NCBI GenBank assembly: GCA_965208125.1 | Contig: OZ242320.1 | Span: 1,216,001 to 1,280,000, forward strand | Direction of reading: 5' to 3' | From: Candidatus Latescibacterota bacterium | GTDB lineage: Bacteria; Latescibacterota; UBA2968 | DNA length: 64,000 nucleotides | Shown: one piece after another, positions 14,865 through 44,814 of the stretch | Layout of the letters: every line of letters begins with the position of its first letter | How positions within the stretch are numbered: position 1 is the first letter of the stretch | Program-made: the position numbers and the translations under genes | Notes under the pieces: model-generated | Told to the model about the DNA's origin: nothing | The model's database searches: none | Seen by the model: the letters and a program-made list of their open reading frames with translations, nothing else

Positions 14865-14894
14865 TCATCAATAATGGGCCATGAGGAGATTGTT

Positions 14895-20800: not shown

Positions 20801-21134
20801 GTCCATCAAGACGGTGACCACAACTGATTTGATCGTCGTGCCGCCAACAAATCTGCAGGCTGAGTACAATGACAGTGGTCCCGCGGTCGTTTTGAACTGG
20901 ACAGCCCCTGACGAGTTTGACAGTTTTACGATTCAACGTGCAGTACTCGCCGCAGGTACTTCCAGTCAAGCCTTAACAGACGCAGATTATACGACTTTGG
21001 CCTCCGCAATTCAGAGCGATTTTTATAGCGATACAAATATTCAAAGTGGCACCATCTATGTTTACCGGGTCCACACAAATCTTTCCGGACGGATCAGTGT
21101 TCCTTCAGATACTGTGCTTATGCCGGTTCCATAG
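14895..21134 (+). CDS. Giant fibronectin type III repeat lipoprotein (~20 FN3 domains)
   Basis: GAGGAG RBS, lipobox-like AMWGC, repeated I.L.W....Y.I.R....YVD......Y.YRV.AV FN3 pattern. Confidence 0.93.
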   Translation: MNHWWTRRLQVGLLGIAIILIAMWGCGRERVNPIDSQYEGEGTVALNSPGNIRAQGDIGRIILNWNPVNSTSLAGYGIWRSTSATGSYELLRGESSVPDVTTARTTYVDSTVDVSVSKIYFYKLSSVDVEGQASELSTFVSAEVLDDTRAPAMPTNFVAITDADGKQVTLGWSAPETDVGNQELTGLSGYRIFRIKDSQGKLQIQGAETALIALATELGIDLDNLGEISEDLKDIFVELGTVPAGQTYFLDTDGLEAGVLHVYVVIAVDPDGNIGPPALALVTISAPGANVPVPAGLRATQNEQARIVISWNPVNDPNLLGYLVLRSQSTQGPFTPVTSDTLFTTGQTTYVDSLVATDQVYFYKVQTVVQDPNLGLLHSDPSTFIDGQALADQSAPGAPSDLIVSLDDANFQRVMLSWTAPVTDRNGNELTGLASFEIYRSRDNNTSFALIATVSSDQASFVDTSVELLTTYFYAIRAVDQAGNAGPRSQPISVTTKGFAIPRNVQAAGGEQKITLTWAANTEPELTGYEILRYTDPTHETPDKTFSSVLTTYVDTPVTADQPFVYRVRAVGTANVKSELSAPVSAQATESAPVLAAPRNVQARGGIGHITITWSANTEAELTGYRVMRYTDPAQTVAEATFTTVQTTYVDSPLVAEQTYVYRVQAVGTNNEESETSLYASATVSADQSAPGAPSDLILSLDDANFQRVMLSWTAPTRDSNNNELTGLASFEIYRSRGNNTSFALIATVSSDQASYEDTSVELLTTYFYAVRAVDQSGNAGPRSQSVSVTTKGFAVPRNVQAAGGEQKITLTWAANTEPELTGYEILRYTDPTQETPDQTFSSVLTTYVDTPVTADQPFVYRVRAVGPSNVKSELSAFVSAQATESAPVLAAPRNVQARGGIGHITITWSANTEAELTGYRVLRYTDPAQTEAEATFTTVQTTYVDSPLVAEQTYVYRVQAVGTNNEESELSLYASATVSADQSAPGAPSDLILSLDDANFQRVMLSWTAPTRDSNNNELTGLASFEIYRSRGNNTSFALIATVSSDQASYEDTSVELLTTYFYAVRAVDQAGNAGPRSQSVSVTTKGFAIPRNVQAAGGEQKITLTWAANTEPELVGYEILRYTDPTHETPDKIFSSVLTTYVDTPVTADQPFVYRVRAVGTANVKSELSAPVSAQATESAPVLVAPRNVQARGGINQITITWTANTEAELTGYRVMRYTDPAQTVAKATFTTVQTTYVDSPLVSGQTYVYRVQAVGTNNEKSELSLYASATVATDQSAPGAPSDLIVSLDDANFQRVMLSWTAPTRDSNNNELTGLASFEIYRSRGNNTSFALLTTVSSDQASYEDTSVELLTTYFYAVRAVDQSGNAGPRSQSVSVTTKGFAVPRNVQAAGGEQKITLTWAANTEPELTGYEILRYTDLTQATPDRTFSSILTTYVDTPVTADQPFVYRVRAVGPSNVKSELSAPVSAQALESAPVLAAPRNVQARGGIGHITITWSANTEAELTGYRVMRYTDPAQTEADATFTTVQTTYVDSPLVAEQTYVYRVQAVGTNNEESETSLYASATVATDQSAPGAPSDLILSLDEANFQRVMLSWTAPVTDRNGNELTGLASFEIYRSRDNNASFALIATVSSDRVSYVDSSVELLTTYFYTVRAVDQAGNAGPRSQPVSVTTKGFAIPRNVQAAGGEQKITLTWAANTEPELTGYEILRYTDLTQATPDRTFSSILTTYVDTPVTADQPFVYRVRAVGPSNVKSELSAPVSAQATAPAPVLAAPRNVQAIDGIEYIAITWLANTEAELIGYRVLRYTDPAQTEAEATFTTVQTTYIDAEVVVGRTYVYRVQAIGSNNEESELSLFASAEVLPDNSPPATPSNFEAALASSGTSIELSWDAPTRDRDINILTGLAGFVIYRLEVSSTDASNVALTRIATIDDPTQEMYRDTNLRSQTEYRYRISAIDHRGNESPPSSIKTVTTTDLIVVPPTNLQAEYNDSGPAVVLNWTAPDEFDSFTIQRAVLAAGTSSQALTDADYTTLASAIQSDFYSDTNIQSGTIYVYRVHTNLSGRISVPSDTVLMPVP
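16066..20490 (+). repeat. Five tandem 885-bp repeats (295 aa, 3 FN3 domains each)
   Basis: Anchor ctgg(t/c)gc at 16081, 16966, 17851, 18736 and 19621. Confidence 0.95.
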
Positions 21135-25239: not shown

Positions 25240-26084
25240 CCCCAGGCGAAACGACTGCCCAGCCAATAGCGCAGTGCAATGCCCAGTTTGTGCAAATCGT
25301 TGAGGCGAATAGACGCGCCAAAAACATCGTAGTTGGCGCGCTGGATCTTCACGAGCAACTGGGCATAAATTTTACCCATAATCTGCGCCGAAAACATGGA
25401 AGCCCGGTCCTCGGCTGGAAGCAATTCTTCGGCTGTTTGATAGTAGGTCCACGCGCGCTGCGCTTGAAACCGCATCAAATCGATAAACGCCGCGTTATAA
25501 TCTCCACGAGCAAGAGCCTTTTCCGTATATCCAAACCGCGTCATCTCTTCCTGCGGAAGATAAATGCGGTCCTGTTGCCAATCCGTATGCACATCTCGCA
25601 AAATATTGGTCAGTTGAAGCGCGAGCCCCAGGTTGACGGCGTAGTCGCGGGTCTGCGGATTGCGGTACCCAAAAATTTCAATACAAATTAACCCCACAAC
25701 CGATGCGACCCGATAGCAGTATTCGCGCAACTCGTCAAACGTCGCATACCGATTCTTAGTCAAATCCATCTCAACACCCTCAATAAGCGCCAGAAAATGC
25801 GCTTTGGGAATGGGAAAATCCCGCAAAACGCCCTGCAGATTCTGCGCGATTGGATGGGTGGCATTGCCCTTATAGCAGGCGTGGAGTTGCTCGCGCCATG
25901 CATTGAGTCGGCACCGCGCCTCTTCTGGCGAAGCCGCATCATCCACGATATCATCTGTATGTCGGCTAAACGCATAAGCCGAAAAAATGGCCTCGCGTTT
26001 TTTGCGCGGCAAAAAAACAAAAGCGTAAAAAAAATTCGTTCGAGCGCCTCGCACGATCTTGGCAATGTGTTTTTTGAGGTTCAC
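25236..26084 (-). CDS. hpnD: Presqualene diphosphate synthase HpnD
   Basis: NFFYAF, DDIVD, YCYRVASVVG and LQLTNILRD motifs. Confidence 0.92.
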   Translation of the reverse strand: MNLKKHIAKIVRGARTNFFYAFVFLPRKKREAIFSAYAFSRHTDDIVDDAASPEEARCRLNAWREQLHACYKGNATHPIAQNLQGVLRDFPIPKAHFLALIEGVEMDLTKNRYATFDELREYCYRVASVVGLICIEIFGYRNPQTRDYAVNLGLALQLTNILRDVHTDWQQDRIYLPQEEMTRFGYTEKALARGDYNAAFIDLMRFQAQRAWTYYQTAEELLPAEDRASMFSAQIMGKIYAQLLVKIQRANYDVFGASIRLNDLHKLGIALRYWLGSRFAWG

Positions 26085-26965
26085 GATTGGACGCCTCGAA
26101 AAAAAAGCGTTTTCAACAAAAGCACGGGCAAATCGCGTTTTGTAATAGTGGGTCGTCGATGAAAAACATCACAATCGTTATCGCGAATCTTCTTTAGAAT
26201 ACGCATCCCCCCCAAACAGGTCAACCGCAGTTCAAAGCGCAACCGCCCTTTCACCATACCCAGCAGGGGATAACCCTCCACAAATAGATCCCGTGTGCGA
26301 TTGATGAGATAATCCATAAGCCTGCAAAATTGCGGCGTAACGCGCTGATCGCGCAAATCTGAAATCCCCACGCCAAACCGTTTGAGATCCTCCTGCGGGA
26401 GATAAATGCGCCCGCGCGAAAAATCAATTGCAATATCCTGCCAGAAATTGGCGAGTTGCAACGCGCTACATATCGCGTCAGAATACCGCGCATAGTCCTC
26501 GCCGCGATACCCAAACAGATGGAGAATAAGCCGCCCCACGGGATTGGCAGAAAAAGTGCAGTACGCCAGCAAATCCCGATACGTCTGATGCCGTTGCGTC
26601 GTCACATCCATGCGAAACGCCGTGAGCAAATCCCTGAGCAATTGCACGGGCAAATCGCGCGTGCGAATCGTCTCTGCAAGTGCCGTAAATATCGGACCAA
26701 CCGGATCTGAAAGACACGCATCGAGACGCGCTTCCCACTCAGCCAGATGATCGAGACGCTCATGCATCGTCAAACCCGGCTCATCGGCAAAATCATCCGC
26801 CGTGCGCGCAAACGCATAGATACTATACACATGGGGCCGCATCGATTTGGGGATAAGCACCGAACCAACCGGAAAATTCTCATAATGCGCACGGGTAAGT
26901 GCCTCGCAATGGGCATAAGCCTCTGCAATCGCAATCCCGCGGGTATTGTATGCGGTCTGTGACAT
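26081..26965 (-). CDS. hpnC: Squalene synthase HpnC
   Basis: HYENFPVGS, ADDFADE, SANPVGR and LQLANFWQD motifs. Confidence 0.93.
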   Translation of the reverse strand: MSQTAYNTRGIAIAEAYAHCEALTRAHYENFPVGSVLIPKSMRPHVYSIYAFARTADDFADEPGLTMHERLDHLAEWEARLDACLSDPVGPIFTALAETIRTRDLPVQLLRDLLTAFRMDVTTQRHQTYRDLLAYCTFSANPVGRLILHLFGYRGEDYARYSDAICSALQLANFWQDIAIDFSRGRIYLPQEDLKRFGVGISDLRDQRVTPQFCRLMDYLINRTRDLFVEGYPLLGMVKGRLRFELRLTCLGGMRILKKIRDNDCDVFHRRPTITKRDLPVLLLKTLFFRGVQS

Positions 26966-27000: not shown

Positions 27001-27020
27001 TATCTTGACTTCTACGGCAC

Positions 27021-27068
27021 AAAAAGAAAACACCCCAGCATCTTTGTGCCGGGGCGTTTTGTGTGTCA
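27021..27068 (-). terminator. Shared terminator element, copy T1
   Basis: Minus strand AAAACGCCCCGGCACAAAGATGCTGGGGTGTTTTCTTTTT. Confidence 0.8.
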
Positions 27069-27162
27069 TTTAAATTCAATACCAAAACGGTTATTTATTT
27101 TTTCACTTTTCACTGCGACCAGTGCACGGAATAAGCGTGTTATGTCTCGGAGGCTGAGAACA

Positions 27163-27387
27163 TCAATCAGAACGAGAACTGCATGCTTGTAAGATGAGAC
27201 GTTCTTTTTGTTCGCTTACCGTGACGGATTCCTCGCAATCTTTAATGATTTCGTCCAACTCCCGTGCAACTGCATGCATATTGTCACCATGGCAACCACC
27301 AAAGAACAATCTTGGACAGGTTCCGACATAACATTGATCAATTTCTGACCATTGTACTGTGCCACCATATTTTGTTGTCATTGCCAT
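27163..27387 (-). CDS. hicB: HicB-like antitoxin (short form)
   Basis: KY...VQWSE.DQCYVG.CP.LF.GGCHG pattern; lies downstream of a hicA remnant. Confidence 0.75.
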   Translation of the reverse strand: MAMTTKYGGTVQWSEIDQCYVGTCPRLFFGGCHGDNMHAVARELDEIIKDCEESVTVSEQKERLILQACSSRSD

Positions 27388-27389
27388 AT

Positions 27390-27476
27390 TTAAGCCCTCT
27401 TAATAGCGTCTTTTACAGCTTTTTCTTGATAAGGTTTTGCATCACTACCGAGGTCCCCTTGTCTTTTAACAGGCAT
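27390..27476 (-). pseudogene. hicA: Internally deleted hicA toxin remnant (28 codons)
   Basis: MPVKRQGDLGSDAKPYQEKAVKDAIKRA* with AGGAGG RBS. The HicA-like C-terminal DAKPYQEK is present; the central GSH core is missing. Confidence 0.65.
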
Positions 27477-27529
27477 CTCATGCCTCCTGAAATAAAAACT
27501 TTGCAATTCAATCCCATATACTTAAAACG

Positions 27530-27561
27530 AAAGTAGCCGATTTCTATGGACCTGTCAACAC
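27530..27561 (-). promoter_or_regulatory. Sigma70 promoter, identical 32-bp copy 1
   Basis: TTGACA-N17-TACTTT; identical to 37696-37727. Confidence 0.8.
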
Positions 27562-27725
27562 CTGCATCGCGTCACATAATGGGCGACCGTGGGCTTGCAT
27601 TAGCAAATGAATGCGACCTGGTCCAAACCAAAAAGGAAACCCACAATAATGTTGTCCATACCTGAAACCCGTATTGCCTTGAATCTGTTGTTCAAACAAT
27701 AGCCCTACATTAAATGCAACAGTAC

Positions 27726-27780
27726 AAAAGAGAACGCCACAGCATCGTTGTGCCGGGGTGCTTTTGTGTGTCAGATAACC
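27726..27780 (-). terminator. Shared terminator element, copy T2
   Basis: aaaagagaacgccacagcatcgttgtgccggggtgcttttgtgtgtcag. Confidence 0.75.
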
Positions 27781-27801
27781 AATTTCCAATATGTTTCATC
27801 T

Positions 27802-28851
27802 TTACGCGGAATCCAACGGGTGTTTATCCAAATACGCAAATAAATCATTCATAAAATCATTGGTAAGCCTGCCAATAACGTATGCTTTATCTTGTCCTGG
27901 TTTCCAAAAGGCTTCATGTATCGCACCGCTGCGATAGCCATAGATGAGGTCTAACGTTTCACGTTTTCGTTTATCAAAAAACTCGCTCTTATCAGCGCAT
28001 AGATGATCGCACATCTGCTTAAAATTTCGCTCTATTTGCTCTCCTTTCTTGTTTATGGTATAAATCTCATTTTTAGTCAGGGGTTTATAAACGTACTTAA
28101 TCAGTGTTTCAGTGACCTTTCCACAAAGCATGATCGTCGCCAGATAACACTGATTTATGTAGCATTCAGAAGCCTCTTCAAGCATGTGCTCTATGGCATC
28201 CACTATGTCTTTGTCAAAATCAGGTGAAGCAGATTCCAATGCATTAAATTGCAAGGGGTCCTCAGTGTTTTTATTTTGTAATTTGGTGTAAATTTTTTTT
28301 ATTAATTTTTTTATTTGATTGCTTAGGGATATTTGATTTGGAGTTATATACGATAGGTATGCTCCAAACGATTCTGAAAACTCGCGCCTCTTCAAATATT
28401 CGACATATTCTTTAACGACTTGCTCAACTTCCATATTTTTTTTAGCATCGTCTGTATTTAAATAAGTTAAATAGTCATTAAGAATTTCCATTGGCAGAGA
28501 TTCGGTCCGAAACTCTGCCCTGAGTGCTCGTATTGCCTGCATATCTATTTCTGTATATTTCGGTTCACATATCAACACCTGGAATATATCTAAAAACGAA
28601 CTCCCCGTACTCTCAAAATAAAATCTCCGTAAGCCCTCTTCTGGTCCTTCAAACCATTTTTCAGGAGGTGCGACCATCCCATAAAGTCGTTCAGCAATTA
28701 GTTCGTCATAGTCTGGAACTTCCAATTTAAGTGGCGAAACGATTTTACGAATAAGTTCATATACCTTTTTATCTGGTCTTAACGAGAACAGGATAAAAGC
28801 AATCGCAAGCCGAGAAAATGTCTTGGCGTTCAATTCGTTGACGTCGTCCAT
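27802..28851 (-). CDS. AT-rich protein with C-terminal HEPN (DUF4145-like) domain
   Basis: EA..CY....YLATIMLCGK..E helix and RxxxxH motif RSGAIH. Confidence 0.6.
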   Translation of the reverse strand: MDDVNELNAKTFSRLAIAFILFSLRPDKKVYELIRKIVSPLKLEVPDYDELIAERLYGMVAPPEKWFEGPEEGLRRFYFESTGSSFLDIFQVLICEPKYTEIDMQAIRALRAEFRTESLPMEILNDYLTYLNTDDAKKNMEVEQVVKEYVEYLKRREFSESFGAYLSYITPNQISLSNQIKKLIKKIYTKLQNKNTEDPLQFNALESASPDFDKDIVDAIEHMLEEASECYINQCYLATIMLCGKVTETLIKYVYKPLTKNEIYTINKKGEQIERNFKQMCDHLCADKSEFFDKRKRETLDLIYGYRSGAIHEAFWKPGQDKAYVIGRLTNDFMNDLFAYLDKHPLDSA

Positions 28852-28961
28852 ATTTGGTCATCTCCCAAGAGGGTGAACTGTCGTACTCTTATCAGGAACT
28901 AAATTAGCCTGCCACTGTCAAGCACGCAAGATTTTTGACTTGCACGGCGAAGCGACCGCAG

Positions 28962-29035
28962 AAAAATAGAACGCCCCAGCATCGTTGTGCCGGGGCGTTC
29001 TCTCCAGGTGAATTCATCCTATATTCATGCTATAT
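28962..29035 (-). terminator. Shared terminator element, copy T3
   Basis: aaaaatagaacgccccagcatcgttgtgccggggcgttct; flank similar to T5. Confidence 0.8.
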
Positions 29036-29064
29036 TTCCATAACATCACATTCCCCTCAATCTT

Positions 29065-31581
29065 TTAACGCGACAGAAGTGGCCGGTAAACCTTTTTGCC
29101 ATCTGAGATTAAATTTCCTCCGGAATTCCACGCTAAATCTGTAACTGTAGCACCTGTTCGAATCTGTTTTTCTCGTAGCCAACCATCTGTTCGCCAGAAG
29201 GTTATGATACCGTCTTCGTCTCCGACAGCGAGATACCGCCCATCAGGTCTAAAAGCAATGGCAAATACATTACCTGCATTCAGCCGTCGAACCTCTGCCC
29301 CGCTACTTACTCTCCATAAGACCACACTGGTATTACTCCCATCGTAGCCATCGGTAGCGAGATATTGTCCATCCGGACTGAACGCGACTGCACGGACATT
29401 GCCCCCAGGTGCCATAAATTGACTATTTACATCGTCTGTCCACCAACTGCTCACCTCCCAAAGAACCGCATAGCCAGCATCATCCCCCGTAGCGAGATAA
29501 CGTCCATTGGGACTAAACGCGACATCATAGACCTCAGAGGCGTCTCGTGCTCCCCACCCGGTCCGTCTGTCACTATTCAGATCCCAGAGCCACGCCCAGC
29601 GAAGATCAACCCCTATTGCGACATAATTCCCATTGGGGCTGAACGCGACTGAATTGACTCGATCTGCATCACTACTCGATGCACCAACCCCCGTTCGTTG
29701 GATCTCTGTGCCACTGCTCACATCTAACAGGACCACATGGGGTTCACTACTGCCTAAGCCATCGGCAGCGATATACCGCCCATCGGAGCTGAAGGCAACG
29801 GATGCGACTTCACCACCAAGACTCTTCCACCAGAGATTCGTGCCACTGCTCACCTCCCAAAGACCTATATCGCCTTCGTCATCTCCCGTTGCGATATATC
29901 TTCCATTGGGACTAAAAGCAACTGAAAGACTGCGACTATAAAGAGAATAGACCTCCTGGCTACCAAGTGCAAGCGTCCCCGTCTTTAAGGGATACTCAAA
30001 GAAGTTGAAATCCCAGGATACGGCGGCAAAATTTCCACCCAACCCAATTTTGTCGAAAATTGCAGCTTGTACACCAGCGTACCCATCTACACCCGCATGT
30101 AACGACCAATCAATCCGGCTCTGTGCTCGATTTGTCACCGCAGTAAAATCCAGGTAAGGTTTCAACCCAAAATAAGGTCCGGCTACAGCATACAAATTAA
30201 AATCTACTTGACCACGTATATAGCCGCGAATAGTCGCCGCGCCTTGTAGTTCTACGGTAGAATCCAGCACTTTGTAGGTCGCTTCGGAACCGTCCGTCAA
30301 TTTCTGCCACAAGCCATCTTTGTATATCGTCCCAACCTCAACAGGCTTTGTCATTGTTATACCCGAAATGATCCGCCCGTCAAATTCAGCACTGAAATCC
30401 GCCCCCACGCCAAATTCCACCCTCACCTCAACCACAACGGGAATCCCACCCACTACAAAGAAGGCGTAATTGGTCACTTGCGCCACGGGTTGGTCTGCAT
30501 TCAGAGTAAAAGCACGAAATGCTTCCAGAGACATTTCTAATGTGACAACGAGATCGCCATTTACTCCCACCTTTAGAGAATCCAACTTAGAACCTTCGAT
30601 ATTCATCTTAAACTCATACTCCGGCGAGAAAGAAATATCGCAAGTGGTCACGCGTAGCTTTGCAGAAGCATCGTTATACAGGGTAATGGGGTCCTGTATT
30701 GTTGGGTTTGCCAACGCGGGCTTTGTCGCTGGAAAACGAAAAGTCCGGCTTATCGAAGCATCTTCAATCACCTCCGTCAAGGCGGCATCTCTGGTCATCA
30801 CAACGACTTCACGGGCATCTTGTCGGCTCACGCTAACTACTTTCTTTAAAAAATAAGGCTCCACCGTATTGACCATGACATCACCGACTTTCACACGCGG
30901 CGCTGTTCCTTGCACAGAAAAGGTTATCTGATCGCCCGTTGTAGTCTGATACATCAAAGGCCCGTCCGGAACGCCCACCAGGACCGCAGCATCAGAGATA
31001 GAGACCACTTCCACTTTCACCGTATCGGGCCTGCTGGCATCCTGCCCGTCATGCACCACCAGTTGAAACAGGTAAGTGCCCGGCCTTTGTGCGCGAAAGG
31101 CCGGTTGGGCAACGGTCACCCCGGAAAGAGCGACGGATTCACCTCCAACTTGACGCCATTCGTAGGTCAATGTTTCGCCTTCAGGGTCGCTACTATTGGC
31201 CCCGTCCAATGTCACTGTTTCACGTTTATCGACGCTTTGGTCTTCGCCTGCCTGAGCTATGGGCAATTGATTTTGTCGTGCTGTTTGCCCAAAGAAATCG
31301 ACAAAGATGAGGAAGTCAGAAATCCCCACCACGCCATTGCTATCCAGATCGTACTTTGCATCATACGTCCCATCGCCGCGGCTTGACCCGAAATGATCGA
31401 CAAACAGCAAAAAATCGGGAATATCAACTATCCCATTGCCGTCAAAGTCAGCATCCGCCGCAGTTTGAGCAGCCACAGGGCACGCCAGACTCAACAGCAT
31501 CGCCGCAGCAACAAATAACCGATACAGAATAATTTCCTCCCAAAGATGATCCTTACGTGTCTTTAAATCACGACGATTCAC
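29065..31581 (-). CDS. Secreted dockerin/EF-hand + PKD + beta-rich domain + WD40 propeller protein
   Basis: Signal peptide, DFDGNG..D..DFL.F twice, PIAQAGEDQ...LDG.NSSDP (PKD), repeated VAFSPNG.Y.ATG WD40 units. Start codon uncertain. Confidence 0.85.
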   Translation of the reverse strand: MNRRDLKTRKDHLWEEIILYRLFVAAAMLLSLACPVAAQTAADADFDGNGIVDIPDFLLFVDHFGSSRGDGTYDAKYDLDSNGVVGISDFLIFVDFFGQTARQNQLPIAQAGEDQSVDKRETVTLDGANSSDPEGETLTYEWRQVGGESVALSGVTVAQPAFRAQRPGTYLFQLVVHDGQDASRPDTVKVEVVSISDAAVLVGVPDGPLMYQTTTGDQITFSVQGTAPRVKVGDVMVNTVEPYFLKKVVSVSRQDAREVVVMTRDAALTEVIEDASISRTFRFPATKPALANPTIQDPITLYNDASAKLRVTTCDISFSPEYEFKMNIEGSKLDSLKVGVNGDLVVTLEMSLEAFRAFTLNADQPVAQVTNYAFFVVGGIPVVVEVRVEFGVGADFSAEFDGRIISGITMTKPVEVGTIYKDGLWQKLTDGSEATYKVLDSTVELQGAATIRGYIRGQVDFNLYAVAGPYFGLKPYLDFTAVTNRAQSRIDWSLHAGVDGYAGVQAAIFDKIGLGGNFAAVSWDFNFFEYPLKTGTLALGSQEVYSLYSRSLSVAFSPNGRYIATGDDEGDIGLWEVSSGTNLWWKSLGGEVASVAFSSDGRYIAADGLGSSEPHVVLLDVSSGTEIQRTGVGASSSDADRVNSVAFSPNGNYVAIGVDLRWAWLWDLNSDRRTGWGARDASEVYDVAFSPNGRYLATGDDAGYAVLWEVSSWWTDDVNSQFMAPGGNVRAVAFSPDGQYLATDGYDGSNTSVVLWRVSSGAEVRRLNAGNVFAIAFRPDGRYLAVGDEDGIITFWRTDGWLREKQIRTGATVTDLAWNSGGNLISDGKKVYRPLLSR

Positions 31582-31594
31582 CTTTCAGCTAACT

Positions 31595-34251
31595 TCACTC
31601 TCCGATGATGTGGATAATACGACCCTTCTCATCCGACACGTAGATTGGCCCCTTCAGGCTACAGTCCCCCCACTCGTAGTTCTGGCGGCCAACGAGCTTA
31701 CCGCTTATGGGGTCGGGTAGTCTGTACGCATCGGCCTGACTAACGTCAACGCGGTAGCCGAGATCGGCCAAAGACTGGATCGTGATCGCGCTCAGGGGAT
31801 TGGCTTCGTAACTGTATATAGGAGTCATAAGTTCGGTACCCAACACGGACTCCCTCCAGTGGCTGCCATCACTCTCTGTTGGGACCTTTGCCCCGTTGTA
31901 GTTCCTACCACCCGCATTGTTGAACGCTTGAATCGATAGCGAGCCGGTGAAGTGCCTGTTGCTACTACTCCCGCGGAGCAAGTCCAATTCTTTCCAAAGT
32001 GTCCCAATCCCCAGAACGTGACCCATCTCATGTAATATCACTGTCCGCAGGGATCCTTCCTCTTCAATTTTCTGCAGGTCGGCCTTATCTAACCATATCT
32101 TTCCAAGGATTGGCAATCTGTTGTCCTCCCGTATCCAAAACGGGGCTCCCTTCCCTGCAGTATCGCCGAAGCCGTCAATCTCGACAGCCCGCACAAATAT
32201 CCTCAGGTCATCTACAATGTCATTAACGCGAATCCGCGTGCCCAAATCCGCGTCCCACTTGTTATACGGATTGGTCGAAAAGTCGGTATCCCTGAGGTCT
32301 TCTGTAATGATCGACATCCAGTGCCTTGCCGCCTGCTGGAATACCGCCTTTTGAGAGGAAGTGAAGTCATCGTCGTTGACGAAGACGAGTTCGATATTGA
32401 AGTCTCCGCGCGTACCCGACGTCGATTCCTGACCCGCCTCAAAACGCACATGCAAGTCATAGCTGCCAGTGTTATAGCCTTCCACTTCAATATAATAGGC
32501 CCCCGGAAAGACCTGGCTCATTATTCCGAAATTATTTCCGCTTCCACTGTCGTCATCACTTGTCCAAAGATAAGGCACATCTCCATTTCCAATATCATAT
32601 AGATAACCCCGAGTATCGATATTGCCTGTCGTGAAGACGGTCAACGCACCAGGCTTGCTTACCTGCACTTTGAAGTAATCTTTATCATTGAGGTTTTCTA
32701 TCCATCCTATGCGATCAATGCCCAAAGAACCCGAAGTATTTAAAACGACCCATGAAAGGGCAGTCGCACCGACCCATGTATTGCTATCATCCGAATAAAA
32801 AAGTGCATTCAAGGTATAGCTTCCGGTCTCTGATCCATAGCCTTCTACTTTGATGTAATAGGTGCCTGAATTTACGACATAATTTATTCCGAAATTATTT
32901 CCGCTTGCACCGTCGTCATCAGTTTCAAAGTAGAACCAGAACTATTTTGTAGCGCACCTTGAGTATCGAGGTTGCCTGTCGTATAAACCGTCAACACACC
33001 GTATCCGCTGACCTGCACGCTGAAGTAATCTACATCAGTGCCGGTTTCTATCTGTCCTGATTTCTCGGCTTCTACATATCCCAGATCATCTAAATAAGTC
33101 ACCTGAATTGAGTCTAAAAACCCCCACCTGAGCCTGGTTGCGCCAGACCTATTATTGCTATGGTCATCGCTTGATTCGGAAATCTGCCAGTTCGCCTGGC
33201 CGGTGTTTCCATCGTCACAAGTGTAGCTTAAAACACCTCCCGTAATTGAACTAAAGGTAAGTTGGTTTCTGCAGCTACCACCGGAGTATTGATTATCATC
33301 ATAGTTTTGCGTAAGCGTGCCAGTATTCGGACCGGTATTCGAATATGTATAACTCCCTGGATAGGTAGAGGTATCTCCATCAGAGATTATGATTTCCCTG
33401 AAACGGCCAGCAGACACAAACTCAATAATAAAATTAAAATTTGATATTACTAAGCGTTTGCCAACCAAAAGGCTGTTGAATGCCTGCTGATCTACTGGCG
33501 CAAAACCAGAAGACGGGTTTGGACTGCCACCTCCACCACCTCCGCTCGGGGGAGATACAGATTTACCGAAGTCGTTGGTGAAGATCAAAAAATCTGGAAA
33601 GCCAATCGCGCCATCGCTATCCAGATCGTACTTCGCTTGATATGTCCCATCACCTCGGCTTGCCCCATACACACCTGCAAACTGCAGAAAGTCGACAAAG
33701 CCCACCATACCATCGCCATCAAAGTCAGGAGAAAGTGTGGCATTAAACCTGATCACATCTCTTGTTGTAATCTCGTCGCGCAATGACGCACTTTCAGCAA
33801 GCGTAACCTGCTTAATGCCAATAGAAAATTCCCGACCCGTTACATCTACAGCCGTAGTAAACTCAGCGCGTGCCAGAAAACCAGATGATGGCAAGGTGAC
33901 AGGTGCAGTAGCGGCGAAGTTTATGCCAGTCGCTTCTGGAATCGCAAAGAGAAACGCACTGTTCTCCGCTTTTTCAAACTTCAAAACAGACGTATCAAAG
34001 TCAAATATGACTTTCACACCAACCAGCGGTGTAGTCACACCTGTTGCGAAAACTTCAACCGCAATTTTTGTGCCCTGTCCAGAGACCGTGCCCGAAACAA
34101 CGCCATTATCTCTCTGATTACCCGACCCGCCATCGGGAATAAGATCAAGCGACAGTGTCGCACCAGCATTTGAACCAGCAGAGGCTTGACCCACAAATAC
34201 CAGTAATGCAAGAATAACTATGACGACAAAATTAGTGATCCATTTATACAT
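31595..34251 (-). pseudogene. Cohesin-like + dockerin + 2x PPC + leishmanolysin-like zinc metalloprotease, split by a 1-nt frameshift near 32926
   Basis: ORFs 32884..34293 and 31595..32812 join in a shifted frame (GSTL/ETDDDGASGNNFGINY..GTYYIKVEGY). HEMGHVLG..SHW..ELMT motifs. Confidence 0.8.
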
Positions 34252-34292
34252 CTTTTTTGACGAATAGAGGAGGACCCTTTTGGGATCATACA

Positions 34293-34988
34293 CTATTTCC
34301 CGATAGGCAAGCCGATACCAACCTGAAGGGCAATAGACCGGTTCTTAACATCATCATTTTCTACTTTGCTAAACGATTGGACCCCCAAAGTGTACAGCAA
34401 TTCGACTAAGAATGTCATCCCTTCGGAAATCGCTATCTCAGTACCGATCCCTCCAGTAATGCCCAAGTCCACCGTCCTGGTCTTGACGAAGTCCCCACAA
34501 TCCACTGGTTTCCCTGTTGTTGACCCATCTGTACCCACGATTCCGCACTTGACATTGAACGCCACCGCCGGTCCAGCGAGCACATATATGGAAGTTGGGC
34601 CTCCGGGTGGGACGAGCGAGGCGATACCCAGGCCTGAAAATTCGATATAATCAAGGTTTGCACTGCCACTTAAATTATCAATGCCAAAAAAGTCCAAAAA
34701 GCCGTCTTCGACAACATCGGCTTGCCACCCTTTCTGCACATAGTTACCACTGAGTTGAAGGGCGAATCTATCCTGTATTGTGATAGTTGCAGAAGTACCG
34801 ACTTTGATGCCTGTACGCGCGCCCATGTCCAAGCCTTCTAGGGACGCGTCATCTCCGCCTATGGTCGCTCGACTCAAGCCTCCCCGAATAGCGATTGTTG
34901 TCTGCCCAAAAACAGGGATAGGATCGTGCAGGGCCGCCAAGGCTATTACACCCATGATAACGATGTAATGAAATGATAAGTGTTTCAT
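34293..34988 (-). CDS. Outer-membrane beta-barrel (PorT/OmpA-like porin family) protein
   Basis: Signal peptide, alternating beta strands, LDYIEF, C-terminal KNRSIALQVGIGL; AGGTGAGG RBS. Confidence 0.8.
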   Translation of the reverse strand: MKHLSFHYIVIMGVIALAALHDPIPVFGQTTIAIRGGLSRATIGGDDASLEGLDMGARTGIKVGTSATITIQDRFALQLSGNYVQKGWQADVVEDGFLDFFGIDNLSGSANLDYIEFSGLGIASLVPPGGPTSIYVLAGPAVAFNVKCGIVGTDGSTTGKPVDCGDFVKTRTVDLGITGGIGTEIAISEGMTFLVELLYTLGVQSFSKVENDDVKNRSIALQVGIGLPIGK

Positions 34989-35061
34989 ATCTATATACCT
35001 CACCTGTAAAAAAGATGATGCCAAAATGGTCTCTGATTGGTAGAATCGAAAAAAATGTAAC

Positions 35062-35213
35062 TTGATGTTGTGGTTGTGGAACTTTACATTTTGATACAGA
35101 GCGGGTTGCGGTTTGCAAGACCGTTTCCTCTCTGTATGTTGCGGCAGAAGGCCACAGGCAGCCAAACCGAGCGGCCTTCTGCCATTCCCGCAGACATCAT
35201 ACATGTTTGCGGT
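35062..35213 (+). ncRNA. Structured element B, copy 1 (promoter plus putative sRNA 35096-35213)
   Basis: TTGATG-N17-TACATT followed by two conserved hairpin domains; near-identical to the 36.1 and 44.4 kb copies. Confidence 0.6.
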
Positions 35214-35241
35214 ACAGATCTCTCTTTTTTCTTTCTACCTT

Positions 35242-35736
35242 CTATTCTGCCTTCTTTATCTTCTCTATTTTGATCTGTACGGGTTGTGTTGAAATAAATT
35301 TCACCGATGCATCGCCAGAAGGGACAATTTTAACGGGTATATCGACAGCACCTGTTTGTTGGCTCGTAAGAGTAACGCTGATTCTCTCTGGGTATAAATC
35401 ATATAATGATCCTGCCATGTAATCTACCATGAGACCCACACCGGACCCGAGAAGATCAAGAAGGACAACTCCAATGTCCACTTTTTTTCTGATTCTCACC
35501 TGACGTGTCTCGTATCCTTCTTTTGAAATTGTAACATTATAATTCTGATTACGTTCCAATTCTGCTTCTGCTGGTGTGGTATATGTCTCGCCTTCTATAT
35601 CAACGGTGCTTCCTGGTGGTGTCGATCTAATGCTAATAAGTTGAGTAGAGCCATTAAGAATCAATCCACATCCAGAAAAAGAAAACAAAGAGAAAGTACA
35701 CAGCAATGCTAATGATACGGACAGGCAATTTTTCAT
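35242..35736 (-). CDS. PEGA-domain lipoprotein
   Basis: Lipobox FSGC; S.PPG..V.I.G...TP...L......VTISKEGY PEGA pattern; AAGGAAGG RBS. Confidence 0.85.
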   Translation of the reverse strand: MKNCLSVSLALLCTFSLFSFSGCGLILNGSTQLISIRSTPPGSTVDIEGETYTTPAEAELERNQNYNVTISKEGYETRQVRIRKKVDIGVVLLDLLGSGVGLMVDYMAGSLYDLYPERISVTLTSQQTGAVDIPVKIVPSGDASVKFISTQPVQIKIEKIKKAE

Positions 35737-36048
35737 AACAACAATCCTTCCTTTTCTTAAAGGTCAAATACGTAACTAAATGTGAGTGATGTCTCATTGA
35801 TGGCGACTATAATCTATCACCCACATCAAATTCTTTTTTTGCACAAAACTAACACCGCGAAATTCTAAACTCAATGAGACGACATGCTTTCTGATCTTAT
35901 CCTCCTTTCAAAAGCAAATATTACTGATAGATTGAATTACCCTGCTCCGCATCTAGGTTAATACTTCTCGCCTAGTAACAGATCGGGCACAGACATAAGT
36001 TTTAAGCCTTCTCCTCCTTTCTCGTTGCATCAAACGGGAAAATGCAAC

Positions 36049-36210
36049 TTGCTTTTGTGATAGTGGCACTTTACATTGTGAACAGAGCGGGTTGCGGTTT
36101 GCAGAACCGTTTCCCCCTCTGTATGTTGCGGCAGAAGGCCACAGGCAGCCAAACCGAGCGGCCTTCTGCCATTCCCGCAGACATAATTACCTGTTTGCGG
36201 TTTTTTTTAT
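36049..36210 (+). ncRNA. Structured element B, copy 2 (promoter plus putative sRNA 36082-36210 with terminator)
   Basis: TTGCTT-N17-TACATT; 3' hairpin ccgcagaca...tgtttgcgg followed by T8. Confidence 0.65.
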
Positions 36211-36260
36211 AATAAGCGTTCAGCAGTCAGCAAAACAAGCTATTCGCTGATTTTCAGCAA

Positions 36261-36300
36261 TAAAAAAACCGCGTGTCCAGAACCAGATGACACGCGGTTG
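36261..36300 (-). terminator. Intrinsic terminator downstream of element A
   Basis: Minus strand AACCGCGTGTC-loop-GACACGCGGTT followed by a T-tract. Confidence 0.85.
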
Positions 36301-36319
36301 ATTATTGTGCTATAAATAA

Positions 36320-36544
36320 TACCGAATGCCATATCACCTATGGCATCCGGTTGCATTATAGAGCCGGTCAAATGCCACAGGCTGTTAGACTCTATCTATA
36401 GCCCAGATTGAGCTCGGCCCTTTCGGAAACCGAAACCATAGCATTTAACCGGCTGGAAGTTGCACAGTATATCCGGCCCCTCCAGCCGGTGCTATAAATA
36501 AAGCCTAACGGCCTTATATTACAACATAAAAGAATCGTTTGCAA
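36320..36544 (-). ncRNA. Structured element A, copy 1, with its promoter
   Basis: TTGCAA-N17-TAATAT (36544-36516); hairpin, three-way junction and terminator-like hairpin; homologous to 44581-44814. Confidence 0.62.
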
Positions 36545-36754
36545 GAAGAAATTGCTCATAAAATTTGCTGGCGCAGTCTGGTATAAAGCGGGCCAATCCA
36601 TAGATTGTACACCCCGCTTCAGTGTGGGGCAGGACCCAAAGTAAGACCACAATGTACATACACTCACAGGTACAGAGAGGTTTCAAATTTATTCATGCTG
36701 AGTCACCGAACAACACCAGTATCGCGTGATAAAGGAGCGTGGATTTGCGTTTTA

Positions 36755-36833
36755 ACGCGAAGCAACAGCACAAAAAGAGAACGCCCCAGCATCGTTGTGC
36801 CGGGGCGTTCTCTTTTTGTGTATCAGGTAAACC
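36755..36833 (-). terminator. Shared terminator element, copy T4 (longest stem)
   Basis: cacaaaaagagaacgccccagca-tcgttg-tgccggggcgttctctttttgtg. Confidence 0.85.
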
Positions 36834-36910
36834 AAAAAACGATTGTAAAAAAAGGCTTTTTCCAGACCCGTTCTCCGACCAGTTGCACCATTGCGCCTGT
36901 TCGTAACAAC

Positions 36911-37630
36911 TCAATGTACCAATTTGATGCCCCATTCAACACACCGCGTTTCGACTTCATCAAGCGGTGCCATGGTCACGATCACGCCATCGACTGTTTT
37001 ATCGGGGTGCAAAGTCCGCATCAACCCCACTTTATCGGCAAAGCGATCCACATCTTCCACCTCGCAAACAGACTTCACTTCAAACACCAGTAAAGTGCTG
37101 TTATAGACCAGAATATCGACTTCGTAGCGGCGCCCTGAAGGTCCAATCATGCCATCCTCATCTTCAAGAGGCTGTCGCAAACGCACATTTTCAGATACAA
37201 TATCGTCTCGCCCAAGAACCAATCTCATCGTGCCAGCAACAACATCCTCGAGTTTTCTGCCAGACCGCGTTTGGAAGCGTCCCACGATCATCTCAACCCA
37301 ATCTCTCAGATCGGAAAAACGCTGATCCATCTGGTCAAACCGTTCATCAACTTTCTCAAATCGCTCATCAACTTTCTCAAATCGCTCATCAACTTTCTCA
37401 AACCGTTCATTGACTTCCGACTGAAATGTATCCATGCCTGACCGAAATGTATCAAACTCGCCACGAAAATCGCGCAATTCAGAAAGGATTGCTGCGACTT
37501 CTTCCTTAGTAGCAAAAGTCCGCATAAAAGCCGTATAGACGCGCCGTTCCATCTCTGGATGGCGTGCAAGCAAAGCCGGCAACTGCTTCTCAAGCGTCTC
37601 TAATAATTCTTCATCTGTCAACAAGGCCAT
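36911..37630 (-). CDS. Coiled-coil + PD-(D/E)xK nuclease-fold protein (DUF3782-like)
   Basis: Heptad repeats ERFEKVD x3 (21-bp repeats at ~37344-37410); E..EVDI...VFEVKS motif. Confidence 0.75.
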   Translation of the reverse strand: MALLTDEELLETLEKQLPALLARHPEMERRVYTAFMRTFATKEEVAAILSELRDFRGEFDTFRSGMDTFQSEVNERFEKVDERFEKVDERFEKVDERFDQMDQRFSDLRDWVEMIVGRFQTRSGRKLEDVVAGTMRLVLGRDDIVSENVRLRQPLEDEDGMIGPSGRRYEVDILVYNSTLLVFEVKSVCEVEDVDRFADKVGLMRTLHPDKTVDGVIVTMAPLDEVETRCVEWGIKLVH

Positions 37631-37695
37631 CTCTCATTCCTCATTAGAATTTCCATAACGCAAGGCCAACTGTTCCAATGACCTTTATCAGATCA

Positions 37696-37727
37696 AAAGT
37701 AGCCGATTTCTATGGACCTGTCAACAC
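37696..37727 (-). promoter_or_regulatory. Sigma70 promoter, identical 32-bp copy 2
   Basis: Identical to 27530-27561. Confidence 0.8.
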
Positions 37728-37736
37728 TCCTCAATG

Positions 37737-37808
37737 AACTACGCCCCAGCATCGAAATGCCGGGGCGTTCTTATGTGTCAGGTAAACTCATCCTGAATTC
37801 ATACTATT
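37737..37808 (-). terminator. Shared terminator element, copy T5 (U-tract eroded)
   Basis: acgccccagcatcgaaatgccggggcgttc...caggtaaactcatcctgaattcatactat. Confidence 0.7.
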
Positions 37809-37884: not shown

Positions 37885-39897
37885 TCAAAACTGCACCGTA
37901 ACTCCTCTGCCTTGAAGGGCTGGAATATGCGTGTTGATTGATGCGTCACTCAGAGGATTATCCCGCACATCAACCCTGTCTCCACTACCCCATCCCGTAT
38001 TTGCTACCAATGGCGAAAGGTCCGTGATTGAGTTATTGCGAAGCCATAATGTTTCTATATTGGTCAAGTTAGACAGCGGCGAAATATCCACGATTGAGTT
38101 ATAGTTAAGAACCAGATATGTCAGATGGGTTAAATCTGACAGTGGTGACACATCCGAGATGGTGTTATTGTTAAGAATCAGACTTGTCAAACTGGTCAAA
38201 CCGGACAGCGGGGACACATCCGAGATGGTATTACTGTTAAGCACCAGACTTGTTAAACTGGTCAAACCGGACAGTCCAGATATGTCCGAGATGCTGTTGC
38301 TGTCAAGACGTAGCCTTGTCAGGCGGGTCAACTCTGACAGTGCTGACACGGCCGAAATGGAGTTGTTGTGAAGAGTCAGATACGTCAGACTGGTCAAGCC
38401 TGACAGTGGTGACACATCCGAGATGCTGTTGCTGGAAAGACTTAGACTGCTCAGACTGGTCAAGCCTGACAGTGGTGAAAGGTCTGTGATCGAGTTGTTG
38501 GAAAGCAATAGCCTTGTCAGAATGATTGCAAACTCCAGACCGGTCAAATCGCTAATGTTCGAGTTCGGTGCATCAAGGCGGGTTAGAGTTGACATATCGC
38601 TTCTGGTGATCGTCTCGCCGCTCGACTTATCCAAAGCGTCCTCAATGGCAACACGCAGATTCGTGTCTGGGATGCTCACAGGCGTTGGGTCGATAACGTT
38701 AAAAACCACCCTAACCCCTCTATCTTGAAGGGCTGGAATGTGTGTGTTGATTGATGTTGTACCCAGAGGATTATCCTTCACATTAACATCGTCACCACTG
38801 CCTAATCCCGTATTTGCCACCAATGGCGCGAGATCGGAGATAGAGTTGTTTTGAAGCCATAGAGTTTGCAGATTGGTCAAGCCTGACAGCGGTGTGAGGT
38901 CAGAAATTGAGTTGTTGATAAGAATCAGCCCTTGCAGATTGGTCAAGTTAGACAGCGGTGAAAGATCCGTAATTGAGTTGTTGACAAGCAACAGCCCTGT
39001 CAGATTGGTCGCAAACTCAAGCCCGGTCAAATCGCTAATATTCGCATTCACTGCGGCAAAGAGGGTTAAGGTTGCCATCTCATCTCTGGAAATCGGAGCA
39101 CCACTCGCCTTGTTCAGACTGTCCTCAACCACAGCGCGCAGATTCATATCTGGAATAGAAACCATCCCTTCATCGCCACCATCAGAAGGAGACACCGTTT
39201 GACCATATTTACCTATAAGAATCCTCAAATCGCCCGCTGCAATCACCCCATCCCTATCCAGATCGTATTTCGCAACATCATCAGCTCGCCGAGACCCATA
39301 CACGCTGATCAGAAGCAGAAGGTCGGATTTACCGACAACACCATCCCCATCAAAATCGGGGGAAGGTGCGACATTAAACCTGATCACCTCTGTTGTTGTA
39401 ATAACATCCTCCACAGGCCTCGCGTTCGTATCTCCAGCAAGCACAATCCTCTTAATGCCAATAGAAAACTCTCGCCCCGTTACATCCACTGCGGTAGTAA
39501 ACTCTGCCCGTGCTAAAAAACCAGACTCAGACAAAGTCGCAGGTGAACTTGCTAATGTTCCCAAGACTGTACCAGTCGCTTCATTTTGAAGTGTAATCAG
39601 AGATGCACTGCTCCTGGCTCCGACATAGGCCAAAACAGACGCATCAAAATCAAATTCAATTCGTACACCAAGCAACGGCGTGGTCACACCTTTTGCGAAA
39701 ACTTCAACCGCGATTTTTGTCCCCTGTCCAGACACTCTACCTGAAGTAACGCCATCATCTCTCTCATTACCTGCCCCTCCATCGGCAATCAAATCAAGCG
39801 ACAAAACCGCATTCGCATTGGGACCAGCAGTCGTTTCTCCTGTACATATCAACAACCCAAAAAGGGTAAAAAACAATAATCCTTTTCTCAAAAACAT
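37885..39897 (-). CDS. Secreted cohesin-like + dockerin + two internalin-type LRR modules
   Basis: Signal peptide; PDFDGDG/YDLDRDG pair; IPD.NLR cap; 22-aa L..L.L..N.ISD.SPLSGLT repeats. Confidence 0.9.
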   Translation of the reverse strand: MFLRKGLLFFTLFGLLICTGETTAGPNANAVLSLDLIADGGAGNERDDGVTSGRVSGQGTKIAVEVFAKGVTTPLLGVRIEFDFDASVLAYVGARSSASLITLQNEATGTVLGTLASSPATLSESGFLARAEFTTAVDVTGREFSIGIKRIVLAGDTNARPVEDVITTTEVIRFNVAPSPDFDGDGVVGKSDLLLLISVYGSRRADDVAKYDLDRDGVIAAGDLRILIGKYGQTVSPSDGGDEGMVSIPDMNLRAVVEDSLNKASGAPISRDEMATLTLFAAVNANISDLTGLEFATNLTGLLLVNNSITDLSPLSNLTNLQGLILINNSISDLTPLSGLTNLQTLWLQNNSISDLAPLVANTGLGSGDDVNVKDNPLGTTSINTHIPALQDRGVRVVFNVIDPTPVSIPDTNLRVAIEDALDKSSGETITRSDMSTLTRLDAPNSNISDLTGLEFAIILTRLLLSNNSITDLSPLSGLTSLSSLSLSSNSISDVSPLSGLTSLTYLTLHNNSISAVSALSELTRLTRLRLDSNSISDISGLSGLTSLTSLVLNSNTISDVSPLSGLTSLTSLILNNNTISDVSPLSDLTHLTYLVLNYNSIVDISPLSNLTNIETLWLRNNSITDLSPLVANTGWGSGDRVDVRDNPLSDASINTHIPALQGRGVTVQF

Positions 39898-44313: not shown

Positions 44314-44361
44314 GATCGCCCCTCCCTTTCTCGTCGCATTCCTCAACCGGAAAAATGCAAC

Positions 44362-44522
44362 TTGATTTTGTGGTGGTGGAACTTTACATTGTGCATAGAG
44401 CGGGTTGCGGTTTGCAAGACCGTTCCCCTCTCTGTATGTTGCGGCAGAAGGCCACAGGTGGCCAAACCGAGCGGCCTTCTGTCATTCCCGCAAACATAAC
44501 ACACGTTTGCAGGTTTTTATTT
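44362..44522 (+). ncRNA. Structured element B, copy 3
   Basis: TTGATT-N17-TACATT; same hairpins; gcaaac...gtttgc followed by a T-tract. Confidence 0.62.
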
Positions 44523-44580: not shown

Positions 44581-44814
44581 AAAAAAACACCGAATGCCAT
44601 ATCACCTATGACATCCGGTTTCTCTATTGAATATGCCGATTAAATGCCACAGGCTACCTTCTTAATCTATAGCCTAGATTAAGTTCGGTTCCTTTAGTCC
44701 CCGAAGCCATAGCATTTAACCGGCTGGAAGTTGCACAGTATATCCGGCTCCCTCCAGCCGGTAGGCTATATTTAAGAAGGCACCTTATGATAAACATTAA
44801 TAAACTTTACGCAA
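44581..44814 (-). ncRNA. Structured element A, copy 2, ending in an intrinsic terminator
   Basis: TTGCGT-N16-TATCAT; compensatory changes relative to copy 1; hairpin followed by GTTTTTTT. Confidence 0.62.

Follow-up and report, generated by a model that had tools for sequence, protein, structure and literature searches.

The 64,000-nucleotide stretch of a Candidatus Latescibacterota chromosome analysed here (contig OZ242320.1, positions 1,216,001 to 1,280,000; hereafter the window, numbered from its first letter) contains five copies of a short hairpin element that we call T, each lying just beyond the end of a minus-strand gene. We think it rather probable, if far from assured, that T is a lineage-specific, portable two-way terminator that, together with a promoter-like box, P(A), forms a terminator–promoter module, bounds accessory gene units and has been spread by general recombination and deletion. 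Such an element would stop transcription arriving from either direction. Here it would close five successive minus-strand transcription units upstream of hpnCDE-like genes: a leucine-rich repeat (LRR)/dockerin gene, a PD-(D/E)xK gene, a five-gene block for secreted proteins, a HEPN-like gene and a pair of small open reading frames (ORFs) of 38 and 74 amino acids.

Five copies of T within 10.8 kb

A search of the window with the 29-nt hairpin, allowing up to three mismatches, gave five matches, all on the plus strand (at 27030, 27734, 28971, 36781 and 37741, with 2, 3, 0, 0 and 3 mismatches, respectively), and none in 100 dinucleotide-preserving shuffles of the window; the five copies reported in a preliminary description of this DNA are therefore real. 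A covariance model, R1, built from these copies and nine homologues from other genomes (alignment A4) and run over both strands of the whole window with filters off, scored the five at 65–81 bits. Their reverse-strand echoes reached 18–31 bits and the next match only 13.5 bits (E = 0.37). Because R1 shows no other real match, the window holds exactly five copies, all between 27.0 and 37.8 kb, and none in the other 53 kb:

T1: 27013–27078, plus strand; hairpin 27030–27058; R1 75.8 bits; 104 nt past the stop of the 74-amino-acid gene
T2: 27718–27783, plus strand; hairpin 27734–27762, stem decayed; R1 74.1 bits; 39 nt past the stop of the 349-amino-acid gene
T3: 28954–29016, plus strand; hairpin 28971–28999; R1 66.3 bits; 65 nt past the stop of the WD40/PKD/dockerin gene
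T4: 36764–36835, plus strand; hairpin 36781–36809; R1 81.2 bits; 101 nt past the stop of the 239-amino-acid gene
T5: 37724–37790, plus strand; hairpin 37741–37769; R1 65.3 bits; 115 nt past the stop of the LRR/dockerin gene

The minus strand carries every gene from 23.9 to 39.9 kb and, as first described, each copy lies 3′ of one of them, 39–115 nt after the stop. Successive copies are 704 nt (T1–T2), 1,237 nt (T2–T3), 7,810 nt (T3–T4) and 960 nt (T4–T5) apart. The left flank of T1 extends into the hpnC-like gene's promoter region, and T3 closes the minus-strand gene block at 29065–35736. T2 sits between convergent frames, because the plus-strand relic of a small gene also ends 5′ of it. T is not a general terminator of the region: the LRR/dockerin gene at 41851–44346 has no copy. 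An Rfam scan of the window found no family at its gathering score, with only sub-threshold terminator-like matches at 34900–37000; T4 with its flanks had no match in plasmid and phage collections; and the 22-nt core had no match in the literature text searched, in which no search was aimed at Latescibacterota repeats.

A hairpin with the form of a two-way terminator

The T module is about 67 nt long and consists of an A-tract, an 11-bp GC-rich stem, a 6-nt loop and a T-tract. The conserved unit runs from AACAGCAC through an A-rich run, stem, loop, stem and T-rich run to GTGTCAGGTAAA, and its 11+6+11 core comprises ACGCCCCAGCA, the loop TCGTTG and TGCCGGGGCGT. The stem is continuous, with a single 1×1 A·C mismatch, and the palindrome spans 28–54 nt. 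Minus-strand folds of T1, T3 and T4 have energies of −24.1, −29.7 and −42.6 kcal/mol, respectively, with none of 200 shuffles as stable, and a U-rich tail follows the hairpin in all three (CUUUUUGUG in T1). The stem of T4 is lengthened to 23 bp (36768–36821; fold z = −13.7). Plus-strand folds range from −22 to −42 kcal/mol, and TTTTTG comes next in most family members. A pattern scan listed two copies as terminator-like, including T3 on the minus strand. A stable GC-rich hairpin with a U-tract on the gene strand is present in T1, T3 and T4, weak in T2 and absent from T5.

The A·C mismatch becomes G·U on the gene strand, in sequence as well as in the folds, as had been pointed out, and the extra stem change of T1 does the same. 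In L047, one of the loci from other genomes described below, a C:G pair has changed to T:A by a compensatory change. These stem changes point to a constraint on T at the RNA level, which would favour a role as a terminator.

For all 14 copies, those of the window and the nine homologues, a frame of at least 60 codons ends 16–115 nt away and is directed into the hairpin; in L087, that frame contains nothing but the small-gene relic. Ten of the 14 copies have the gene on the same side as in the window. Convergent pairs flank L033 and L086, and also T2 if its relic of 17 codons, below the count threshold, is included. T has the form of a bidirectional Rho-independent terminator and most likely works as one, an activity that we infer.

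Homologues in other genomes

We scanned genome contigs with a 17-base degenerate core, requiring an exact match, and obtained at least 121 loci. True homologues make up 9 of the 121 matches listed (R1 66–88 bits); the other 112 score 26.2 bits or less, share the core only and are chance matches in unrelated, mostly GC-rich genomes. The chromosome from which the window was taken is not among the matches listed, and the number of exact cores per related chromosome, at least one to three among those matches, is a lower bound. As only loci with an exact core could be retrieved, the invariant stem of the nine homologues is uninformative, and it is the flanks that provide independent evidence. Eight of the nine listed homologues fall in five Latescibacterota or Latescibacteria records (three on OZ241986.1, two on OX638329.1 and one each on OZ244847.1, OZ220741.1 and CBDDPH010000002.1); the ninth, L016, is on a contig labelled ‘uncultured bacterium’.

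The genes that T follows are diverse. They include dockerin-domain genes (L016 and L086), a gene with a type IX secretion system sorting tail (L094), the DUF1854 gene of an ABC-transporter operon (L047) and a PQQ/BamB-like gene (L001), and in L033 the element lies between a convergent enolase-superfamily gene and a 598-amino-acid ORF. Because its neighbours are so varied, and include genes of housekeeping type, T is bound neither to toxin genes nor to a particular strand. The proposal that the array collects defence genes is not supported by these neighbours, and PADLOC found no defence system in the window.

L001, L015 and L072 represent a single orthologous T site, with DNA 88–95% identical. 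An insert of about 1.35 kb in L001 (2358–3707, on OZ244847.1) splits the PQQ/BamB-like gene adjoining T; it carries a 415-amino-acid ORF with weak matches to IS256 (E = 1e-4) and IS6 (2e-3) transposases, far below the cut-offs, and probably represents a kind of insertion sequence not yet described.

Mosaic flanks and exchangeable neighbours

The core of T is far better conserved than its flanks, which form a mosaic across copies. Right flank ‘a’ (GGTAAACCAATTTCCAA) is shared by T2, L016, L086 and L033 and in part by T4; right flank ‘b’ (GGTAAATTCATCCTGAATTCA) by T3, T5 and L087 and loosely by T1 and L001; and left flank ‘c’ (GCGAAGCAACAGCAC) by T3, T4 and L016, with a deleted form in T1. The conserved flanks named in the preliminary description are thus each found in some copies: gcgaagc..cagcac in T3 and T4, with a deleted form in T1, and tgtgtcaggtaaac in T4 and T5, with only variants in T1 and T2. 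The extra flank ascribed to T3 and T5 is there, as about 65 nt of common right flank with 78% identity.

Outside the core, the window copies are 40–67% identical to one another. Adjacent copies share 64% (T1–T2), 46% (T2–T3) and 50% (T4–T5) of flank positions, and the best flank partners are in other genomes (T1–L087 80%, T2–L016 77% and T4–L086 76%). Because adjacent pairs are not the closest, the copies are older than the divergence of these genomes and did not arise with each new gene; the idea that the element is duplicated on gene acquisition does not fit this pattern.

L016 also has the unit formed by T3, the 5′ region and the 349-amino-acid gene (protein 52% identical; non-coding flank 81% over 148 nt), placed after another dockerin gene, and L087 has the PD-(D/E)xK gene together with P(A) and T5, beyond which the DNA is different. 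In both of the cases examined, the genomes have different neighbours across T. We considered the sharp end of the T3–L016 homology at the hairpin as a breakpoint and dropped it; T3 has a short deletion in its T-tract.

A copied module of promoter-like box, gene relic and terminator

In L072 (2093–2317) and L015 (2091–2315), a minus-strand gene of 75 amino acids, encoding a coiled coil and a membrane helix, ends at the hairpin and lies on the strand that reads ACGCCCCAGCA. The protein matches XhlA (PF10779) at 3e-5, below the cut-off, and PF10779 occurs in 9 of its 18 homologue clusters. The gene behaves as a 430-nt indel, present in L072 and L015 and absent from L001, with a single T in each. 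An 85-amino-acid frame beside T in these three loci was rejected as a gene: it is antisense to the real 75-amino-acid gene, and its identity is 93% between L015 and L072 and only 24% in L001.

The left flank of T2 is a relic of the 75-amino-acid gene, and L086 and L087 likewise hold only deletion relics of it. The relic and the two copies of P(A) in the window are as follows:

Small-gene relic: 27649–27702, plus strand; 17 codons, MLSIPETRIALNLLFKQ and a stop; in-frame deleted remnant of the XhlA-like gene
P(A) copy 1: 27530–27561, minus strand; TTGACA, 17 nt, TACTTT; upstream of the 38-/74-amino-acid pair
P(A) copy 2: 37696–37727, minus strand; upstream of the 239-amino-acid gene, 13 nt from the T5 hairpin

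The window copies of P(A) are 100% identical over 32 nt and 91–94% identical to those of L086 and L087. P(A) is a promoter-like box that may act as a promoter; a consensus promoter scan did not list it. At four loci, P(A) and T together precede three genes that are unrelated to one another.

On OZ241986.1, 1.6 kb separate the direct repeats L086 and L087, each of which retains the last 18 or so codons of the small gene, fused to the 32-nt P(A). The two are near-identical along a stretch of about 172 nt that runs from P(A) to GGTAAA, with a common deletion junction and divergent sequence on both sides. Because the junction is shared, a single deletion event must have been followed by the copying of the bare P(A)–relic–T module to a second gene junction. 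By eye, no terminal inverted repeats or target duplications were seen at the ends of the module. L087 is also the counterpart of the T5 locus of the window: the first 37 residues of the 239-amino-acid protein are 97% identical and the 5′ region 90%. In the window, another 87 nt have been lost from between P(A) and the hairpin; the homology stops 45 nt past the hairpin, with unrelated DNA beyond.

T belongs to an old family shared by several Latescibacterota-titled genomes and travels with short flanking pieces, of which this module is the clearest. We hypothesize that its spread and the shuffling of its neighbours would have arisen by recombination, homologous or illegitimate, among dispersed copies and by later decay through deletion, and not through a dedicated recombinase.

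Genes bounded by T in the window

The alternation of genes and hairpins is as originally laid out. In minus-strand order, the LRR/dockerin gene is followed by T5, P(A), the 239-amino-acid gene, T4 and 1.2 kb of non-coding DNA, and then by the five-gene block (encoding a PEGA protein, an outer-membrane barrel, a 469-amino-acid protein, an M8-like peptidase and a WD40/PKD protein), T3, the 349-amino-acid gene, T2, P(A), the 38- and 74-amino-acid ORFs, T1 and the hpnC/D/E-like genes:

LRR/dockerin gene: 37885–39897, minus strand; ends before T5
239-amino-acid gene: 36911–37630, minus strand; heptad coiled coil and C-terminal PD-(D/E)xK nuclease fold (predicted)
WD40/PKD gene: 29065–31581, minus strand; last of the five-gene block; N-terminal dockerin-like segment, by similarity only
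349-amino-acid gene: 27802–28851, minus strand; C-terminal HEPN-like domain (RSGAIH); GC 0.34–0.40
38-amino-acid ORF: 27390–27506, minus strand; upstream of the 74-amino-acid gene; previously labelled hicA
74-amino-acid gene: 27163–27387, minus strand; HicB-like lead from the Atlas only
hpnC-like squalene/phytoene synthase gene: 26081–26965, minus strand; first housekeeping-type gene downstream of the array

The 239-amino-acid protein is a predicted PD-(D/E)xK nuclease, a label already given to it and supported by fold matches and invariant residues. The model of its C-terminal domain (pLDDT 70–91) matches EndoMS/NucS (6.3e-4) and Card1 (9.2e-4) in Foldseek, and also Can2, NucC and AF1548; D172, E184 and K186 are invariant in 22 sequences of the family. 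Sequence matches to the PDB were discarded as coiled-coil noise. The protein has more than 580 homologues at 47–95% identity, many of whose lengths step by 7 (211, 218, 225 ... 246), matching the number of ERFEKVD-type heptads, and the gene contains a 21-nt tandem repeat of 3.6 copies (37335–37410). The coiled coil looks like a stalk of variable length.

The 349-amino-acid protein belongs to a rare family (11 clusters, including that of the window itself, in 5.8 billion sequences; none named) and had no match in Pfam, NCBIfam, PADLOC or PDB sequence searches. Its R307-x4-H312 motif is nearly invariant in 11 sequences, and its C-terminal helices align with the HEPN structures 2hsb, 3o10, 7bxo_F, 1ufb and 1o3u (target-normalised TM 0.56–0.77, probability 0.80–1.00), albeit with weak E-values, above 0.07 (0.27–1.9). 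A further lead from the Atlas is DUF4145, found in 19% of the members of a cluster at score 0.93. The HEPN label thus has moderate support: structural similarity and the R307/H312 pair speak for it and the E-values do not. The hicAB label given to the small pair fares worse, as neither product matches a HicA or HicB family. Searches of Pfam, NCBIfam and PADLOC returned nothing for the 38-amino-acid ORF, and nor did these and PDB sequence searches for the 74-amino-acid protein; what is left is the Atlas lead, clusters at score 0.87–0.88 in which HicB families occur in 12% or 37% of members.

GC content is 0.34–0.43 over 27.0–28.9 kb, compared with 0.50–0.55 in the hpn genes, and that of the 239-amino-acid gene (0.48) is ordinary for its surroundings. 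The dockerin-like N-terminal segments of the LRR, WD40, 469-amino-acid and second LRR proteins (33556–34206, 39196–39369, 43489–44316 and 31282–31467) are paralogous, with 31–61% identity. By this similarity, related secreted proteins are clustered in this part of the window.

Alternative explanations

Several observations count against T as a portable terminator. T2 has two further stem mismatches and a fold z of −1.1, and T5 has no U-tract on the gene strand because its A-tract side is deleted; given the stem decay of the one and the U-tract loss of the other, the copies cannot all be functional terminators. Drift in sequence is usual for intrinsic terminators, and stems that are nearly identical at sites without homology call for a further cause, be it copying, gene conversion or a sequence-specific partner. 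The homologous stretch, 29–67 nt at about 76% mean identity, is short for exchange of the RecA type. Moreover, the clustering of all five copies within 10.8 kb of accessory genes is also what a cassette system would lead one to expect.

In such a system, T would be the crossover site of enzyme-less chromosomal cassettes in Latescibacterota, either attC-like, as in attC-site clusters that have no integron-integrase (CALIN), or an 11+6+11 tyrosine-recombinase site, with a host recombinase, or a single-strand hairpin enzyme encoded elsewhere. Promoter–gene–T units would be excised as circles and re-inserted at other copies, and the site would double as a two-way terminator. We regard this as quite unlikely. 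It would account for direct repeats on one strand that lie 0.7–1.2 kb apart within two sub-arrays, for nuclease- or toxin-like genes of low GC content between them, for neighbours across T that vary by genome and for the direct repeats L086 and L087, which bracket about 1.4 kb. Yet Pfam revealed no integrase, transposase, Y1 or RAYT protein or other recombinase among the 47 ORFs of the window, which also contains no tRNA or tmRNA gene usable as an integration site. The loop, which would be the central or overlap region, differs between would-be partners (TCGTTG in T4 and TCGAAA in T5, 3 of 6 positions; TCTTTG in T1 and TCGTTG in T2, 1 of 6); adjacent copies are not the most similar pairs; and T also follows housekeeping-type genes. 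The one case of presence and absence found, the 75-amino-acid gene, is not hairpin–insert–hairpin: where a comparison of strains was to reveal empty sites with a single T, L072 and L015 on the one hand and L001 on the other have one T in both states. The integron-like logic first proposed therefore stands in so far as T-bounded units are modular across genomes, but signs of capture machinery are absent.

The comparison with known cassette sites leads in the same direction. Like CALIN, the T array has direct repeats of a folded site after ORFs, toxin- or nuclease-like cassettes and no integrase nearby, and within the sub-arrays it has the CALIN spacing, in which two or more sites of one strand are separated by under 4 kb. 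T differs from CALIN sites in its shorter palindrome, in having A- and T-tracts typical of a terminator, and in that adjacent copies are no more alike than distant ones. attC sites, which are grouped by a 4-kb clustering rule, are described as having R″–L″/L′–R′ boxes, a central spacer that stays unpaired and extra-helical bases (PMC4889954); the T stem has no such box pairs, spacer or extra-helical bases, and only AAC/GTT triplets at its foot recall R boxes. The earlier statement that canonical attC and a local integrase are lacking is thus correct. Integron cassettes are also described as rarely holding promoters (PMC4889954), whereas at least two T units have the promoter-like P(A).

The 11+6+11 geometry of the 28-bp core is that of dif sites, given as 28 bp = 11+6+11 in PMC6449649, and is equally that of any hairpin with a 6-nt loop. 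The dif modules of Acinetobacter plasmids resemble the T array, in the accounts of PMC6449649 and PMC13141974, in being small accessory or toxin–antitoxin modules without a recombinase of their own. T is chromosomal, unrelated to dif in sequence and GC-rich in its arms, and its central 6 nt vary. It lacks the inner ATAA/TTAT motif of dif, and its copies share one orientation, whereas dif sites alternate. The minimal mobile elements of Neisseria provide a precedent for alternative cassettes exchanged between conserved anchors by homologous recombination without an element-encoded enzyme. Their anchors are flanking genes, hundreds of bases long, whereas the anchors shared in the T array are only intergenic modules of 30–170 nt.

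A non-autonomous hairpin transposon, REP/REPIN-like or of IS200/IS605 type and moved by a Y1 enzyme (RAYT or TnpA) acting in trans, appears doubtful. T lies outside genes and forms an imperfect palindrome whose stem mismatch is conserved, and it occurs at non-homologous intergenic sites of several genomes; it would land after genes since insertions are tolerated there, and same-orientation copies flank short gene segments. As to function, T would work like those families of extragenic palindromic repeats that also act as terminators: like the REP/BIME repeats of enterobacteria, the Correia elements of Neisseria and the RUP and BOX elements of pneumococci, it is a short, structured, lineage-specific intergenic repeat found after genes at non-homologous sites, with possible terminator or promoter activity, persistence over speciation and mosaic flanks. 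REP-type elements are described as long-lived and vertically inherited (10.1101/2022.05.22.493013). In contrast to these families, T is of low copy number as far as seen (five copies in one region of 64 kb, and few exact cores per related chromosome among the matches listed), clustered and single, and no terminal inverted repeats, target duplications or associated transposase were seen. The flanks conserved with it are pieces of gene and promoter, namely the promoter-like box and the small-gene relic, and not element ends; no GTAG/CTAC motif abuts the stem; the module ends in L086 and L087 have no target duplication or terminal repeat; and the window encodes no Y1 transposase. The mobile REPIN unit is described as two REPs in inverted orientation (PMC3337134), whereas all 14 T copies are single, and covariance-model searches of the window and the nine loci found no second T near the copies apart from the reverse-strand echo.

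It is also improbable that there has been no mobility at all, with T copies being ordinary terminators inherited by descent and their likeness coming from old segmental duplications of gene-plus-terminator blocks. Each window copy does have a closer relative in another genome, attached to the same gene (T3 with L016, and T5 with L087), and T has been retained at a single orthologous site in L001, L015 and L072. However, the genes attached to T are mutually unrelated, conservation is far higher in the core than in the flanks, and the module of L086 and L087 lies between different genes and hence was copied alone. That the stem is an inverted-repeat pair of DNA-uptake signals, as in the terminators of Neisseria and Pasteurellaceae, is barely conceivable: a genome carries such signals at a density of about one per kb, whereas the core is absent, in either orientation, from the 64 kb outside the five T copies. 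Uptake signals do occupy terminator stems in some bacteria (PMC1852404).

Other repeats in the window

A second repeat family has copies at 35043–35221, 36030–36208 and 44343–44521 (about 170 nt, 88–91% identical), with an extension in which 36314–36496 resembles 44582–44770. On the plus strand, each copy has a TTGATT-N17-TACATT-like box, together with three strong hairpins and one final hairpin, which is followed by a T-run in the 36030 and 44343 copies and not in that at 35043. The copies lie upstream of, or antisense to, the minus-strand starts of the outer-membrane barrel, PEGA and LRR/dockerin genes. The family had no match in Rfam and is a candidate small RNA or leader family. The 36030 copy falls in the 1.17 kb between the PEGA gene and the 239-amino-acid gene (35737–36910), which has no convincing ORF and also holds a terminator-like hairpin at about 36262–36300 and the sequence that recurs at 44582–44770. 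Elsewhere, a 2,086-amino-acid fibronectin-III protein (14874–21134) contains five 885-nt repeats that are 86–88% identical, and an HlyD-like gene includes a glycine-rich region of GGACGCGG-type repeats (9674–10029).

Implications

True recombination sites at T would matter far more than terminators, and the evidence makes them unlikely; arrays of genes for nucleases and toxins, set between those for secreted proteins, would then represent a third kind of system beside integrons and dif modules. If T is instead a portable two-way terminator, it would be a clear case, in a little-studied phylum, of a terminator or terminator–promoter pair reused as a unit boundary. Such boundaries would mark where nuclease-like, HEPN-like and dockerin/LRR genes reshuffle between genomes. 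In practice, R1 is a specific marker for variable gene slots in these genomes.

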